A stretch of DNA of 64,000 nucleotides, from assembly GCF_058153355.1 (NCBI RefSeq), contig NZ_CM177019.1; one strand, written 5' to 3'. Each line of letters opens with the position of its first letter. Position 1 is the stretch's first letter. A program made the translations under genes and the position numbers. Shown here piece by piece: positions 11,160 through 53,785 of the stretch. The notes beneath the pieces are model-generated. The model was not told where the DNA came from and did no database searches. It saw only the letters and a list, made by a program, of their open reading frames with translations.

Positions 11160-11297
11160 CGGGAAAGCCCCTCCCGAGGAAGGGGCCTTAAATAAGGAAA
11201 GGGTCATGATGAAGTGGATCATCATCGTGGTGCTCTTAGTCGTTAGCTACCCAGCTTACTAAGACTACCAGGGCGGGGGAAACCCCGCTCAACCCTC
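11160..11297 (-). ncRNA. sib: Predicted Sib-type antisense RNA (antitoxin) covering ibs copy 1; ends approximate
   Basis: Minus-strand promoter-like TTGACA (plus 11328-11333), 17-nt spacer, TATTTT (plus 11305-11310); minus-strand hairpin GCCCCTTCCTCGGGAGGGGC followed by a T-rich tract near 11165-11195 as terminator; transcript fully overlaps the ibs ORF. Confidence 0.45.
11206..11262 (+). CDS. ibs: Ibs-family type I toxin, 18 aa (MMKWIIIVVLLVVSYPAY), repeat copy 1
   Basis: Short hydrophobic ORF with an MMK start and PAY C-terminus, preceded by an AAGGAAAGGG Shine-Dalgarno-like sequence; matches the Ibs toxin pattern. Too short for the ORF track. Confidence 0.75.
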   Translation: MMKWIIIVVLLVVSYPAY

Positions 11298-11487
11298 ACT
11301 CCTGAAAATATGCCTTCACGGTCAGAATGTCAATCCGCAGGCTTTGCAGTCTGCGATCCTGCCAGCAAATATTCTTTGCGAGTCGTTACGCAATAATCAC
11401 AGATGAAACTATTTTATCTAAGCGTTAGCGATAGACTGCATTCAGGGCAAAAGGAGGTAGGCCGACGATTTCAGCGGGACGCTGAAA

Positions 11488-11625
11488 CGGGAAAGCCCCT
11501 CCCGAGGAAGGGGCCTTAAATAAGGAAAGGGTCATGATGAAGATACTCATCATCGTGGTGCTCTTAGTCATTAGCTTACCGGCTTACTAAGACTACCAGG
11601 GCGGGGGAAACCCCGCTCTACCCTC
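11488..11625 (-). ncRNA. sib: Predicted Sib-type antisense RNA covering ibs copy 2; ends approximate
   Basis: Same architecture as copy 1, shifted 328 bp; -10 element is TACTTT. Confidence 0.42.
11534..11590 (+). CDS. ibs: Ibs-family type I toxin, 18 aa (MMKILIIVVLLVISLPAY), repeat copy 2
   Basis: Same features as copy 1, exactly 328 bp downstream. Confidence 0.75.
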   Translation: MMKILIIVVLLVISLPAY

Positions 11626-11815
11626 ACTCCTGAAAGTATGCCTTCACAATCAGATTGTCAATCCGCAGGCTTTGTAGTCTGCGATCCTGCCAGCAAATAT
11701 TCTTTGCGAGACGTTACGCAATAATCACATGTGAAACTATTTTATCTGCAAGTTAGCGATAGACTGCTTGCATGGCGAAAGGAGGTAGGCCGCCGATTTC
11801 AGCGGGACGCTGAAA

Positions 11816-11953
11816 CGGGAAAGCCCCTCCCGAGGAAGGGGCCTTAAATAAGGAAAGGGTCATGATGAAGCTACTCATCATCGTGGTGCTCTTAGTTATT
11901 AGCTGGCCAGCTTACTAAGACTACCAGGGCGGGGGAAACCCCGCTCTACCCTC
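11816..11953 (-). ncRNA. sib: Predicted Sib-type antisense RNA covering ibs copy 3; ends approximate
   Basis: Same architecture; TTGACA retained, -10 degenerate (TAACTT), so expression is less certain. Confidence 0.38.
11862..11918 (+). CDS. ibs: Ibs-family type I toxin, 18 aa (MMKLLIIVVLLVISWPAY), repeat copy 3
   Basis: Same features as copy 1, 656 bp downstream. Confidence 0.75.
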   Translation: MMKLLIIVVLLVISWPAY

Positions 11954-12135
11954 ACTCCTGAAGTTATGTTACTCCACCCTTATTGTCAATCTGTAAGTCC
12001 ACGTTCTTGCGGGGCGAATAGCAAAACCCTCTGCGCTTATGGGCCGAATTCTGAAAGTTGCTTTGCCTGCTCTTATTTCATTATTGCAGTCGGTATGATA
12101 CCGGACCTCAATAATTCTCTAAGAAAGGATTTCTT

Positions 12136-27983: not shown

Positions 27984-28022
27984 CAGTGTGTTGGTAGCTA
28001 AAAAGCCAGGGGCGGTAGCGTG
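27984..28022 (+). promoter_or_regulatory. JUMPstart element with ops motif (GGCGGTAGCGTG) in the wza leader
   Basis: CAGTGTGTTGGTAGCTAAAAAGCCAGGGGCGGTAGCGTG, ~180 bp upstream of wza; ops sites recruit RfaH for antitermination of long polysaccharide operons. Confidence 0.78.
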
Positions 28023-28200
28023 TCTGGATGCCTGAAAGACCAGTCTGAATTATTCTGTCAATAGCCTGCGGATGAAATCAATTTTTTTAGGACTGATGCC
28101 AGTTAAATTTTTATTCAATTAACTGCAAGGTAAATGTGCATGGCGACATTGCTATTAATAGTGCACAGGATAATTACTCTGCCAAAGTGATAAATAAACA

Positions 28201-42470: not shown

Positions 42471-42553
42471 GCGAAACCGCGGTGTAAATAACGACAAAAA
42501 TAAAATTGGCCGCTTCGGTCAGGGCCAACTATTGCCTGAAAAAGGGTAACGAC

Positions 42554-43924
42554 ATGAAAAAATTAACCTGCTTTAAAGCCTATGATATTCGCGGGAAATT
42601 AGGCGAAGAACTGAATGAAGATATTGCCTGGCGTATTGGGCGTGCCTATGGCCAATTTCTCAAACCGAAAACCATTGTGTTAGGCGGTGATGTCCGCCTC
42701 ACCAGCGAAACCTTAAAACTGGCGCTGGCAAAAGGTTTACAGGATGCGGGCGTTGACGTGCTGGATATCGGTATGTCCGGCACCGAAGAGATCTATTTCG
42801 CCACGTTCCATCTCGGCGTGGATGGCGGCATTGAAGTTACTGCCAGCCATAATCCGATGGATTACAACGGCATGAAGCTGGTGCGCGAGGGGGCTCGCCC
42901 GATCAGCGGTGATACCGGACTGCGCGACGTCCAGCGTCTAGCTGAAGCCAACGACTTTCCTCCCGTCGATGAAACCAAACGCGGTCGCTATCAGCAAATC
43001 AACCTGCGTGACGCTTACGTTGATCACCTGTTCGGTTATATCAACGTCAAAAACCTCACGCCGCTCAAGCTGGTGATCAACTCCGGGAACGGCGCAGCGG
43101 GTCCAGTAGTGGACGCCATTGAAGCCCGCTTTAAAGCCCTCGGCGCGCCCGTGGAATTAATCAAAGTACACAACACACCGGACGGCAATTTCCCCAACGG
43201 TATTCCTAACCCGCTGCTGCCTGAATGCCGCGACGACACCCGCAATGCGGTCATCAAACACGGCGCGGATATGGGCATTGCTTTTGATGGCGATTTTGAC
43301 CGCTGTTTCCTGTTTGACGAAAAAGGGCAGTTTATCGAGGGCTACTACATTGTCGGTCTGCTGGCAGAAGCATTCCTCGAAAAAAATCCCGGCGCGAAGA
43401 TCATCCACGATCCGCGTCTTTCCTGGAACACCGTTGATGTGGTGACTGCCGCAGGCGGCACGCCGGTGATGTCGAAAACCGGACACGCCTTTATTAAAGA
43501 ACGTATGCGCAAGGAAGACGCCATCTACGGTGGCGAAATGAGCGCCCACCACTATTTCCGTGATTTTGCTTACTGCGATAGCGGCATGATCCCGTGGCTG
43601 CTGGTCGCTGAACTGGTATGCCTGAAAGGAAAAACGCTGGGCGAACTGGTGCGTGACCGCATGGCAGCGTTTCCGGCAAGCGGTGAGATCAACAGCAAAC
43701 TGGCGCAACCCGTTGAGGCGATTAACCGCGTCGAACAGCATTTTAGCCGCGAGGCGCTGGCGGTGGATCGTACTGATGGCATCAGCATGACCTTTGCCGA
43801 CTGGCGCTTTAACCTGCGCTCTTCCAACACCGAACCGGTCGTACGCCTGAATGTGGAATCGCGCGGTGATGTGCCGCTGATGGAAGCGCGAACGCGAACT
43901 CTGCTGACGTTGCTGAACGAGTAA
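42554..43924 (+). CDS. cpsG: Phosphomannomutase (ManB)
   Basis: Start at the internal ATG ([20 protein letters not shown]...), giving 456 aa; phosphoserine active-site motif TASHNP. Confidence 0.93.
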
Positions 43925-44045
43925 TGTCATTACTTTCCCCCTCACCCTGACGCTCTACTGCCTGCGGAGAGAAGTGAGCACGGAACTTTATTCTCCCCCT
44001 CGCCCCTTTGGGGAGAGGGCCGGGGTGAGGGGCGAGGCGACAATA
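43925..44045. repeat. GC-rich composite palindromic intergenic element (not a canonical REP)
   Basis: CCCCCTCACCC (near 43937) pairs with GGGTGAGGGG (near 44020); inner inverted repeats CTCCCC/GGGGAG and CTCGCCCC/GGGGCGAG. Resembles a recurrent small E. coli intergenic repeat; family name not assigned. Confidence 0.5.
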
Positions 44046-44059
44046 GAACAGGAACAACG

Positions 44060-45454
44060 ATGACAAATCTAAAAAAGCGCGAGCGAGCGAAAACCAATGC
44101 ATCGTTAATCTCTATGGTGCAACGCTTTTCAGATATCACCATCATGTTTGCCGGACTATGGCTGGTTTGCGAAGTGAGCGGACTGTCATTCCTCTACATG
44201 CACCTGTTGGTGGCACTGATTACGCTGGTGGTGTTCCAGATGTTGGGCGGCATCACCGATTTTTATTGCTCATGGCGCGGTGTTCGGGCAGCGACAGAAT
44301 TTGCCCTGCTGCTACAAAACTGGACCTTAAGCGTGATTTTCAGCGCCGGACTGGTGGCGTTCAACAATGATTTCGACACGCAACTGAAAATCTGGCTGGC
44401 GTGGTATGCGCTGACCAGTATCGGACTGGTGGTTTGCCGTTCGTGTATTCGTATTGGGGCGGGCTGGCTGCGTAATCATGGCTATAACAAGCGTATGGTC
44501 GCGGTGGCGGGGGATTTAGCCGCCGGGCAAATGCTGATGGAGAGCTTCCGTAACCAGCCGTGGTTAGGGTTTGAAGTGGTGGGCGTTTACCACGACCCGA
44601 AACCGGGCGGCGTTTCTAACGACTGGGCGGGTAACCTGCAACAGCTGGTCGAGGATGCTAAAGCAGGCAAGATTCATAACGTCTATATCGCGATGCAAAT
44701 GTGCGACGGCGCGCGAGTGAAAAAACTGGTCCATCAACTGGCGGACACCACCTGTTCGGTGCTGCTGATCCCCGATGTCTTTACCTTCAACATTCTCCAT
44801 TCACGTCTTGAAGAGATGAACGGCGTTCCGGTGGTGCCGCTTTACGACACGCCGCTTTCCGGGGTTAACCGCCTGCTCAAACGTGCGGAAGATATTGTGC
44901 TGGCGACGCTGATCTTGCTGCTGATCTCCCCTGTGCTGTGCTGCATTGCGCTGGCGGTGAAACTGAGCTCACCGGGGCCGGTTATTTTCCGCCAGACTCG
45001 CTACGGCATGGATGGCAAACCGATCAAAGTATGGAAGTTCCGTTCCATGAAAGTGATGGAGAACGACAAAGTGGTGACCCAGGCGACGCAGAACGATCCG
45101 CGCGTTACTAAAGTGGGGAACTTTCTGCGCCGCACCTCGCTGGACGAATTGCCGCAATTTATCAATGTACTGACCGGGGGGATGTCGATTGTGGGGCCAC
45201 GTCCGCACGCGGTGGCGCATAACGAACAGTATCGCCAGCTCATTGAAGGCTACATGCTGCGCCATAAAGTGAAACCGGGCATTACCGGCTGGGCGCAGAT
45301 TAACGGCTGGCGCGGCGAAACCGACACGCTGGAGAAAATGGAAAAACGCGTCGAGTTCGACCTTGAGTACATCCGCGAATGGAGCGTCTGGTTCGATATC
45401 AAAATCGTTTTCCTGACGGTATTCAAGGGCTTCGTTAACAAAGCGGCATATTGA
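44060..45454 (+). CDS. wcaJ: UDP-glucose:undecaprenyl-phosphate glucose-1-phosphate transferase WcaJ (initiating transferase)
   Basis: 464-aa ORF; N-terminal TM helices; C-terminal bacterial sugar-transferase domain with the conserved IVGPRPH motif. Confidence 0.92.
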   Translation: MTNLKKRERAKTNASLISMVQRFSDITIMFAGLWLVCEVSGLSFLYMHLLVALITLVVFQMLGGITDFYCSWRGVRAATEFALLLQNWTLSVIFSAGLVAFNNDFDTQLKIWLAWYALTSIGLVVCRSCIRIGAGWLRNHGYNKRMVAVAGDLAAGQMLMESFRNQPWLGFEVVGVYHDPKPGGVSNDWAGNLQQLVEDAKAGKIHNVYIAMQMCDGARVKKLVHQLADTTCSVLLIPDVFTFNILHSRLEEMNGVPVVPLYDTPLSGVNRLLKRAEDIVLATLILLLISPVLCCIALAVKLSSPGPVIFRQTRYGMDGKPIKVWKFRSMKVMENDKVVTQATQNDPRVTKVGNFLRRTSLDELPQFINVLTGGMSIVGPRPHAVAHNEQYRQLIEGYMLRHKVKPGITGWAQINGWRGETDTLEKMEKRVEFDLEYIREWSVWFDIKIVFLTVFKGFVNKAAY

Positions 45455-45455
45455 T

Positions 45456-46934
45456 ATGAGCTTACGTGAAAAAACCATCAGCGGCGCGAAGTGGTCGGCG
45501 ATTGCCACGGTGATCATCATCGGCCTCGGGCTAGTGCAGATGACCGTGCTGGCGCGGATTATCGACAATCACCAGTTCGGCCTGCTGACCGTGTCGCTGG
45601 TGATCATCGCGCTGGCAGATACGCTTTCTGACTTCGGTATCGCTAGCTCGATTATTCAGCGAAAAGAAATCAGTCACCTTGAACTCACCACGTTGTACTG
45701 GCTGAACGTCGGGCTGGGGATCGTGGTGTGCGTGGCGGTGTTTTTGTTGAGTGATCTCATCGGCGACGTGCTGAATAACCCGGACCTGGCACCGTTGATT
45801 AAAACATTGTCGTTGGCGTTTGTGGTGATCCCCCACGGGCAACAGTTTCGCGCGTTGATGCAGAAGGAGCTGGAGTTCAACAAAATCGGCATGATCGAAA
45901 CCAGCGCGGTGCTGGCAGGCTTCACTTTTACGGTGGTTAGCGCCCATTTCTGGCCGCTGGCGATGACCGCGATCCTCGGTTATCTGGTCAATAGTGCAGT
46001 AAGAACGCTGCTGTTTGGCTACTTTGGTCGAAAAATTTATCGCCCCGGTCTGCATTTCTCGCTGGCGTCGGTGGCACCAAACTTACGTTTTGGTGCCTGG
46101 CTGACGGCGGACAGCATCATCAACTATCTCAATACCAACCTTTCAACGCTGGTGCTGGCGCGTATTCTCGGCGCGGGCGTGGCAGGGGGATACAACCTGG
46201 CGTACAACGTGGCCGTTGTGCCGCCGATGAAACTGAACCCAATCATCACCCGCGTGTTGTTTCCGGCATTTGCCAAAATTCAGGACGACACCGAAAAGCT
46301 GCGCGTCAACTTCTACAAGCTGCTGTCGGTGGTGGGGATTATCAACTTTCCGGCGCTGCTGGGGCTGATGGTGGTGTCGAATAACTTTGTACCGCTGGTC
46401 TTTGGTGAGAAGTGGAACAGCATTATTCCGGTGCTGCAATTGCTGTGTGTGGTGGGGCTACTGCGCTCAGTGGGTAACCCGATTGGTTCGCTACTGATGG
46501 CGAAAGCGCGGGTCGATATCAGCTTTAAATTCAACGTATTCAAAACATTTCTGTTTATTCCGGCGATTGTTATTGGTGGGCAGATGGCGGGCGCAATCGG
46601 CGTCACGCTCGGTTTCCTGCTGGTGCAGATTATCAACACCATTCTGAGTTACTTCGTGATGATTAAACCGGTGCTCGGTTCCAGTTATCGCCAGTACATC
46701 CTGAGTTTGTGGCTGCCGTTTTATCTCTCGTTGCCGACGCTGGGGGTCAGTTATGCGCTGGGCATTGTGCTGAAAGGGCAACTGGCGCTGGGGATGCTGC
46801 TGGCGGTGCAAATAGCCGCGGGCGTGCTGGCGTTTGTGGTGATGATTGTGCTGTCGCGCCATCCGCTGGTGGTGGAAGTGAAGCGCCAGTTTTGTCGCAG
46901 CGAAAAAATGAAAATGCTTTTACGGGCGGGGTGA
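45456..46934 (+). CDS. wzxC: Colanic acid repeat-unit flippase WzxC
   Basis: 492-aa polytopic membrane protein of the polysaccharide-biosynthesis (Wzx) family. Confidence 0.9.
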   Translation: MSLREKTISGAKWSAIATVIIIGLGLVQMTVLARIIDNHQFGLLTVSLVIIALADTLSDFGIASSIIQRKEISHLELTTLYWLNVGLGIVVCVAVFLLSDLIGDVLNNPDLAPLIKTLSLAFVVIPHGQQFRALMQKELEFNKIGMIETSAVLAGFTFTVVSAHFWPLAMTAILGYLVNSAVRTLLFGYFGRKIYRPGLHFSLASVAPNLRFGAWLTADSIINYLNTNLSTLVLARILGAGVAGGYNLAYNVAVVPPMKLNPIITRVLFPAFAKIQDDTEKLRVNFYKLLSVVGIINFPALLGLMVVSNNFVPLVFGEKWNSIIPVLQLLCVVGLLRSVGNPIGSLLMAKARVDISFKFNVFKTFLFIPAIVIGGQMAGAIGVTLGFLLVQIINTILSYFVMIKPVLGSSYRQYILSLWLPFYLSLPTLGVSYALGIVLKGQLALGMLLAVQIAAGVLAFVVMIVLSRHPLVVEVKRQFCRSEKMKMLLRAG

Positions 46935-46949: not shown

Positions 46950-47255
46950 TCCGACAACGGTTGCCGGGTGCAGCGTAAAACGCCTTATCCGTCCTACGGT
47001 TCTGTGCTCGGGACCTGTAGGCCTGATAAGACGCGTCAGCGTCGCATCAGGCACTGAATGCCGGATGCGGCGTGAACGCCTTATCCGTCCTACGGTTCTG
47101 TGCTCGGGACCTGTAGGCCTGATAAGACGCGTCAGCGTCGCATCAGGCACTGAATGCCGGATGCGGCGTGAACGCCTTATCCGGCCTACGGTTCTGTGCT
47201 CGGGTCTTGTAGGCCTGATAAGACGCGCCAGCGTCGCATCAGGCAAAAAGCGGCA
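46950..47255. repeat. Tandem array of three ~97-bp REP/BIME units
   Basis: The block GCCGGATGCGGCGTGAACGCCTTATCCG(T/G)CCTACGGTTCTGTGCTCGGG...GTAGGCCTGATAAGACGCG(T/C)CAGCGTCGCATCAGGCA recurs three times. Confidence 0.85.
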
Positions 47256-53746: not shown

Positions 53747-53785
53747 TAGTGTACTGGTAGCTGTGGAGCCAGGGGCGGTAGCGTG
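53747..53785 (+). promoter_or_regulatory. JUMPstart element with ops motif (GGCGGTAGCGTG at 53774-53785) heading the O-antigen cluster
   Basis: TAGTGTACTGGTAGCTGTGGAGCCAGGGGCGGTAGCGTG, ~60 bp upstream of wzx; near-identical core to the copy upstream of wza. Confidence 0.78.

Follow-up and report, generated by a model that had tools for sequence, protein, structure and literature searches.

The GC-rich palindromic element between cpsG and wcaJ is almost certainly a member of the repeat family known as BoxC, PIT element or TMECO and, judged from its sequence, it reads as a head-to-head pair in which a decayed minus-strand copy is followed by a 23-nt spacer and an intact plus-strand copy. The explanation that we consider best as a whole, and probably the right one, joins this BoxC pair to a stem-loop in the operon mRNA and to an indel-prone stretch of DNA. 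The main outcome is a name for a repeat that the first-pass annotation had left unnamed; the family, which is non-coding, GC-rich and found at intergenic sites of E. coli and related Enterobacteriaceae, dates from descriptions of the 1990s, with further studies in 2000 and 2015. The present analysis adds the decayed inverted partner, an estimate of how frequent the long and short alleles are at this site, and the conservation of a hairpin at the same slot across genera.

The window is the whole stretch of 64,000 nt that was analysed, and the gene names are those that RefSeq gives to a 99.9% identical region of strain CP8-3_Sichuan. Both genes lie on the plus strand, with the TAA stop codon of cpsG at 43922-43924 and the ATG of wcaJ at 44060, leaving a gap of 135 nt (43925-44059) that is slightly longer than the interval 43925-44045 marked at first pass. 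A composite palindromic element fills this gap, as had been described: all the reported motifs are present, and nested C-rich and G-rich inverted repeats occupy positions 43937-44037. In one of them (I1), CCCCTCACCC (43938-43947) pairs with GGGGTGAGGGG (44022-44032) inside 19-nt arms that are 84% complementary; in another (I6), CCTCGCCCCT (43998-44007) pairs with AGGGGCGAGG at 10 of 10 positions, and the central TTTGGGGAGAGGG lies at 44007-44019. The window contains a single copy of the 37-nt core and a single match to a degenerate 22-nt version of it, where shuffles lead one to expect 0.00, and no further copies of the core were found within the 64 kb even at 3 mismatches. The coordinates of the features are given in Table 1.

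Table 1. Features of the cpsG-wcaJ gap (window coordinates; sequences of the left copy are read on the plus strand)
Feature	Position	Strand	Remarks
Decayed inverted BoxC/TMECO copy	43937..43973	-	17/19 match to TMECO reverse complement
Left copy, CC-CCCTCACCC	43939-43947		reverse complement of G2, intact
Left copy, TGA (loop 2), then CGCTCTACT			reverse complement of G1, 6/9
Left copy, end: GCCTG (loop 1), then CGGAGAGAA			reverse complement of C block, 6/9
Spacer and T-rich leader GTGAGCACGGAACTTTATTCTCC between the copies	43974..43996	+	23 nt; 3' part within the repeated unit
Intact BoxC/PIT/TMECO, type B 'mm'	43997..44032	+	consensus fit, K-12 identity, multi-copy
C block CCCTCGCCC	43997-44005	+	
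Loop CTTTG between C block and G1		+	
G1 GGGAGAGGG	44011-44019	+	
Loop CCG between G1 and G2		+	
G2 GGGTGAGGG, then G	44023-44031	+	
Extra overlapping G block AGGGGCGAGG	44028..44037	+	sole perfect partner of C block CCTCGCCCCT
Predicted long outer stem in cps operon mRNA	43938..44033 (43938-43949 with 44022-44033)	+	encloses two hairpins
wcaJ ribosome-binding region GAACAGGAACAACG and ATG	44046..44062	+	conserved; outside the structure, not sequestered

The right half of the element is an intact copy of the family. The published consensus, CCCTCNCCC N3-6 GGGNGAGGG N3 GGGNGAGGG, with a final position that may be G, T, C or absent (PMC4666352), is matched at 43997-44031 on the plus strand and nowhere else in the window, and the stretch from 43997 to 44032 is identical at 36 of 36 positions to TMECO no. 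3 of K-12 MG1655 (282101-282136), a type B element with one mismatched triplet. The first-pass proposal that the element belongs to a small intergenic repeat family of E. coli other than REP is in agreement with this consensus fit and identity. The 'mismatched' C block finds a perfect partner only in the extra G block of the window copy, GGGGCGAGG (44029-44037), and the same GGGGTGAGGGGCGAGG tail is present at the orthologous site of Enterobacter hormaechei (L031).

A blastn search of 5426 complete E. coli genomes with the 135-nt gap as query gave matches at 28,042 places in 4610 of them, with a median of 6 and a maximum of 15 places per genome, all chromosomal except for 15 on plasmids. The repeated part corresponds to approximately 43978-44039 of the window, the matches to other genomic copies beginning at 43978-43988. 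The copies that were sampled lie in unrelated intergenic regions, namely yagA-yagE (read directly from the HB101 sequence), lldD-trmL and araA-araD, all three with a T-rich leader of a similar kind ahead of them, and, upstream of flgN, between genes for a glycosyltransferase and a hypothetical protein (L009). The single-copy result that would have spoken against a repeat family was thus not obtained for the right half of the element; in the left half, 43915-43992 is found at exactly one place per genome in 500 genomes, always adjoining cpsG. A left half as repetitive as the right one is ruled out, since it is single-copy and specific to the cpsG-wcaJ locus.

The presence of BoxC at this site is already known, because TMECO no. 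391 in Table S8 of Holder et al. (2015) lists the same cpsG-wcaJ site in the O26:H11 strain 11368 (NC_013361 2875141-2875106; PMC4666352). The sequence of no. 391 is exactly that of the window copy, the K-12 and O26 catalogue entries being the same sequence, and in the RefSeq record of NC_013361 its interval falls between the start of wcaJ (2875078) and the end of cpsG (2875214). The site is not in the Table S8 list for O55:H7 RM12579, a strain in which a point mutation in the G2, or third, block (GGGGTGCGGGG) breaks the strict consensus. As for the names, BoxC was described in the 1990s, the element was rediscovered as a 'potential intrastrand triplex' (PIT) by Hoyne & Maher (2000), and TMECO is the name given by Holder et al. 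in 2015 (PMC4666352); 'BoxC' is also listed in a survey of stem-loop repeat families (PMC2267715). The Rfam searches gave no match at the element when the whole window was scanned at the gathering level, and at E <= 10 the region 43500-44500 yielded chance-level matches only (E 1.7-8, with bit scores far under the gathering cut-offs); Rfam holds no model for BoxC. Earlier papers on BoxC are reportedly those of Bergler in 1992 and Bachellier in 1996.

An assignment of the element to REP/BIME or to another named family such as ERIC/IRU, or its reading as a unique local palindrome that belongs to no family, draws on the presence of an intergenic GC-rich palindrome in an operon where REP elements are found as well (47020-47186), and retains a negligible probability. 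The REP sequence GCCGGATG...CATCCGGC is absent from the element, which agrees with the distinction from REP made at first pass, and the REP-derived Rfam model naRNA4 matches 47020-47186 only. The element gave no Rfam match even at E <= 10, and its core is multi-copy and identical to a catalogued BoxC/TMECO; copy number and catalogued identity have together already refuted the three identities. The two naRNA4 matches (RF02564; 47020-47090 and 47116-47186, minus strand) lie just downstream of ORF 45456-46934, which follows wcaJ, and the same operon thus has a REP/BIME pair in another intercistronic gap.

The left half appears to be a second copy, inverted and decayed, and we read the element as a head-to-head pair because this half matches the TMECO reverse complement and is inverted relative to the right copy. 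Positions 43937-43955 (CCCCTCACCCTGACGCTCT) agree with the TMECO reverse complement (CCCCTCACCCTAACCCTCT) at 17 of 19 positions over G2, loop and G1, and the local alignment score of 28 was reached by 1 of 1000 dinucleotide shuffles (15.9 +/- 2.5). By direct reading of the sequence, CGCTCTACT, GCCTG and CGGAGAGAA align with CCCTCTCCC, loop and GGGAGAGGG, with 6 of 9 positions matching in each block. Closely spaced inverted pairs, which are frequent in the family, combine type A with type B; on its own strand loop 2 of the left copy is TCA, which is neither the canonical TTA of type A nor the CCG of type B. The left copy is collinear with intact minus-strand copies at lldD-trmL (L007), at L009 and in Kluyvera (L058 and L066), and the head-to-head layout is that of the intact pairs at lldD-trmL (K-12 TMECO 17 and 18) and L009; the same inverted-pair layout is shared with the orthologous cpsG-wcaJ site in Kluyvera, Enterobacter and Lelliottia.

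The element resembles known BoxC/PIT/TMECO elements in its exact consensus match, in being type B with one mismatched triplet, intergenic, multi-copy and chromosomal, and in what appears to be an inverted partner, as at five K-12 sites. It differs from them in the poor condition of this partner, whose G1 and C blocks retain only 6 of 9 positions each, in a short spacer (23 nt, as compared with 59 nt at lldD-trmL), in the extra overlapping G block that pairs perfectly with the C block, and in the location of the pair inside an operon, between co-directional genes. In HB101, what remains of an inverted partner, CCCCAAAGGGGAGAGGGGAC (L006 1482-1500), likewise stands ahead of the yagA-yagE copy, the K-12 copy whose sequence is that of the window core. 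In many cases, 'solo' TMECOs may be pairs of which one member has decayed.

The site is polymorphic in E. coli. A 736-nt query across the gap was covered to at least 80% by matches in 4647 genomes, and most of these matches consisted of two alignment pieces and were 81 nt shorter. K-12 and most strains carry a gap of 54 nt, TGTCGGATCTTCCCTTACCCCACTGCGGGTAAGGGGCTAATAACAGGAACAACG, where a plain hairpin (CCCTTACCC/GGGTAAGGG) takes the place of the outer stem of the long allele (alignment A1). The long allele is present in about 500-508 of the 5426 complete genomes (around 9%), including O26, O145:H28 and O55:H7 strains and many others, the rest being mostly short. Among the long alleles, the variation comprises 1-nt deletions in the C and G runs, a substitution in a loop, the G2 point change of O55:H7 and, in strain E69, a 7-bp deletion between the near-repeats GGGGTGAGG and GGGGCGAGG.

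The hairpin of the short allele in K-12 and Citrobacter (CCCTTACCCC-loop-GGGTAAGGGG) is similar to the long element in its position, in the polarity of a C arm followed by a G arm and in its distance to the wcaJ ribosome-binding site, and also in its arms, which look like the outer blocks of the BoxC pair but carry one compensatory difference (TTA/TAA as against TCA/TGA). It differs in being single-copy and 81 nt shorter and in having no third block, so that no triplex is possible. The short form is nearly unchanged in Citrobacter koseri, C. sedlakii, C. amalonaticus and E. whittamii. An origin of the short allele by recent simple deletion of the long one was rejected, given that the two alleles diverge at many positions in their stems and on both flanks (A1) and also because the short form is common to these Citrobacter species and E. 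whittamii.

The flanks of the gap were compared at the loci L001-L005, L010 and L070. Neither the single-nucleotide differences in the nearest 390 nt of cpsG nor those in the nearest 390 nt of wcaJ separate long from short alleles, and the 5' end of wcaJ in the long-allele strain C5 is identical to that of the short-allele K-12. Recent import of the long allele together with its flanks was rejected on the same 390-nt differences. As the flanking SNPs do not sort by allele, the long/short polymorphism would be either old relative to local recombination or recurrent, and the flanks of the site point to a mosaic, recombining region. Between E. coli strains, the last 390 nt of cpsG show 10-24 differences and the first 390 nt of wcaJ 0-13, a ratio of approximately two.

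Considering the slot beyond E. coli, one scan of genome contigs with WcaJ gave 60 Enterobacteriaceae loci, with no Salmonella or Klebsiella among those returned, and the gap could be extracted from 57 of them; together with the window and K-12 this makes 59 gaps. A hairpin, a fused palindromic TMECO or a TMECO pair is present at the same place in 56 of the 59. Plain hairpins with a C arm and a G arm, in gaps of 45-68 nt, are found in E. whittamii, Citrobacter, Kosakonia, Silvania, Yokenella, some Lelliottia and some Enterobacter, several of them being CCCTCTCCC-loop-GGGAGAGGG, that is, a TMECO minus its third block. Fused palindromic TMECOs or full inverted pairs, some of them decayed, occur in the Enterobacter cloacae complex, Kluyvera, Lelliottia sp., Pseudenterobacter, Leclercia and Phytobacter. 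The 36-nt core is identical in Kluyvera (L046 and L066) and in Enterobacteriaceae bacterium RIT714 (L029), where the WcaJ protein is just 71-85% identical, and this identity despite the divergence of WcaJ suggests homogenisation or spread of the core. In RIT714 the gap reaches 247 nt and contains about three tandem copies (1024-1158 of that locus) of a 41-43-nt unit, formed by the BoxC C block, its loop and a partial G block, which sit within, and are flanked by, an intact inverted TMECO pair.

No hairpin was found in three of the 59 gaps: Citrobacter sp. MGH106 (L030) has lost the stem and has a gap of 39 nt, Enterobacter sp. EA-1 (L068) has a gap of only 20 nt, and Siccibacter colletis (L048) carries an unrelated gap of 139 nt. 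Because these three lack it, the hairpin appears to be dispensable in at least some backgrounds, and the three species could be used as natural knock-outs.

A stable RNA structure is predicted for the plus strand of 43922-44062, with -57.6 kcal/mol (z = -3.5) and 0 of 200 dinucleotide shuffles as stable; the minus strand gives -54.0 kcal/mol (z = -2.2). The outermost blocks are complementary in the head-to-head layout and hence form the long outer stem of the predicted fold, which ends 17 nt ahead of the wcaJ ATG. Across the 59 gaps the median z is -3.1, with z < -2 in 46 of them, and the structure ends at a median of 10 nt before the ATG, leaving free the conserved ribosome-binding region AACAGGAACAACG; this region is invariant in alignments A1 and A3 and nearly invariant across genera. 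In the 12 short alleles of Escherichia and Citrobacter the 11-bp stem has 96% of its cells paired, whereas slid controls pair only 41-63%, and three pairs are changed on both sides (C-G to U-A, U-A to C-G and G-C to A-U), a covariation score reached by 0 of 500 shuffles. The loop of the short allele is variable and a U-G pair is kept at the base of the stem. The sense strand folds better than the antisense at 40 loci as opposed to 17, in counts that are not corrected for phylogenetic relatedness, and this bias is a weak hint of RNA-level constraint.

At the DNA level, oligonucleotides of type B mm form a stable intrastrand purine-motif triplex in vitro, as seen by CD and NMR, with a Tm of about 70°C; the triplex signal was not detected in the duplex form nor supported by in vivo DMS footprinting, and purine-motif triplexes do not form in RNA (PMC4666352). 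For the strand of the element as DNA we obtained only a hairpin, of -12.9 kcal/mol, with ViennaRNA, whose model does not include triplexes. The element is similar to the mirror repeats of H-DNA, or intramolecular triplexes, in the potential of its G-rich strand for a purine-motif (G-G-C) intrastrand triplex, established in vitro for this type of sequence, and differs in being a short three-block motif, H-DNA being a long homopurine mirror repeat, and in that DMS footprinting did not support a BoxC triplex in vivo.

With respect to function, the element lies within a transcription unit, between co-directional genes, and would be transcribed as part of the wza-wcaM polycistronic colanic-acid mRNA. 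There the outer blocks CCCCTCACCC and GGGGTGAGGG would pair and enclose two smaller hairpins, giving a very stable stem-loop between the cpsG stop codon and the wcaJ Shine-Dalgarno sequence that would cover neither. Such a passive RNA structure may act in the manner of REP as a barrier to 3'->5' exonucleases, buffering the upstream segment, or alternatively as a processing boundary that would determine how much of the wcaJ-distal part of the transcript is present relative to the cpsG-proximal part; it would not serve as a terminator, nor as a promoter. As DNA, the single-stranded element could form an intrastrand triplex or a hairpin, leading to small indels and to turnover of the long and short alleles. 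REP/BIME elements in intercistronic gaps, for example malE-malF, are the model for the proposed action as a 3'-exonuclease barrier, and the element resembles them as a GC-rich palindromic repeat in the intercistronic gap of a long operon that would be transcribed into a stem-loop, but the BoxC sequence family is unrelated to them. We know of no evidence of a cognate transposase of the RAYT/TnpA-REP type for BoxC, and of no demonstrated stabilising effect.

We advance the passive stem-loop role in the cps mRNA, as decay barrier or processing boundary, only as a tentative possibility. The role of mRNA stabiliser suggested at first pass is plausible in that it fits the conserved hairpin slot, and the RNA reading is further favoured by the sense-strand bias, the U-G pair at the stem base and the free ribosome-binding site; against it, E. 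coli tolerates both the 135-nt and the 54-nt versions of the gap, and TMECOs show no orientation bias relative to genes (PMC4666352), a reason to doubt that the family in general functions at the RNA level. Template-switch ('quasipalindrome') correction can likewise produce compensatory changes in a DNA palindrome even when the RNA is not under selection. The main rival reading is a purely DNA-level repeat, selfish or neutral, whose structure-forming sequence (an intrastrand purine-motif triplex, a hairpin or a cruciform on single-stranded DNA) has no role in the cps mRNA, persists at this slot by palindrome-templated repair and gene conversion, keeps its symmetry by template-switch repair and has local instability as its sole effect. 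DNA instability is evident in the indels and decay among the long alleles and in the 41-43-nt tandem expansion of one species (RIT714), and this reading would also accommodate the coexistence of two alleles with unsorted flanking SNPs, the identical 36-nt core shared by E. coli, Kluyvera and RIT714 at 71-85% WcaJ identity, the stable triplex of type B mm oligonucleotides in vitro, the greater variability of TMECO loci between strains as compared with controls, and a family with neither orientation bias nor promoter or terminator activity (PMC4666352). We regard it as rather unlikely: the footprinting and duplex results speak against a stable triplex (PMC4666352), and it leaves unexplained both the sense-strand folding bias and the hairpin held at the same position before wcaJ in nearly every genus, including plain hairpins incapable of a triplex.

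A third reading, in which the element is an attenuator or intrinsic terminator that lowers read-through from cpsG to wcaJ, as the first-pass annotation had entertained, is very improbable. A very stable GC-rich stem does lie directly upstream of wcaJ, and less WcaJ, a membrane-bound initiating transferase, than upstream proteins would be physiologically sensible. However, the stem is followed by CGAGGCGACAATAGAACAGG without a U run, so that no U-tract terminator is present; the 3' flank of the element is CGAGGCGACAATAG, across genera this flank is A-rich, and the terminator scan found nothing terminator-like at 43937-44045. Its only match nearby was a weak AT-rich hairpin over the cpsG stop codon (43905-43929, plus strand; 10 pairs, 3 of them G-C), and the 2 sites found in the scanned region against 1.0 expected are at chance level. 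Promoter-like sites for sigma-70 (-35/-10 hexamers with 16-18 nt spacing) were likewise absent from 43500-44500, and in the assays summarised in PMC4666352 PIT elements neither acted as promoters or terminators nor affected RNA polymerase. Stronger than the passive stem-loop that we favour, and distinctly improbable in our estimation, would be a slot occupied by a selected cis-acting RNA stem-loop of the colanic-acid operon, kept across Enterobacteriaceae, of which the BoxC/TMECO pairs would be interchangeable elaborations, arising from or decaying into the hairpin. If it were true, BoxC would have its first demonstrable function at cpsG-wcaJ, with a natural allelic series made up of the plain hairpin, the fused palindrome, the inverted pair, the tandem expansion and the deletions of MGH106 and EA-1.

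In the literature searched we found no report since 2015 on TMECO or BoxC function, and no paper on a cpsG-wcaJ stem-loop. A copy inside a well-studied operon, with two alleles in E. coli and hairpins in nearly all relatives, constitutes a convenient natural system for asking whether BoxC has an effect as RNA, on the stability of the operon mRNA or on the relative dosage of WcaJ, or only destabilises DNA.

Other features were observed in the window. On the 5' side of cpsG, the Rfam algC RNA motif (RF02929) matches 42500-42549 on the plus strand with 76.6 bits (E 3e-15), mostly in the gap between the end of cpsB (42361) and the annotated cpsG start. It is overlapped by the mechanical ORF 42506-43924 (TTG start, 472 aa), and translation probably does not include the N-terminal residues by which this ORF exceeds the annotated CpsG of 456 aa. 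Three tandem SIB RNA genes (RF00113, 136-140 bits) at 11191-11333, 11519-11661 and 11847-11989 on the minus strand constitute a Sib/Ibs type I toxin-antitoxin array. Two JUMPstart elements (RF01707) at 27984-28022 and 53747-53785 on the plus strand are presumably the leaders of the colanic-acid operon and the O-antigen cluster.
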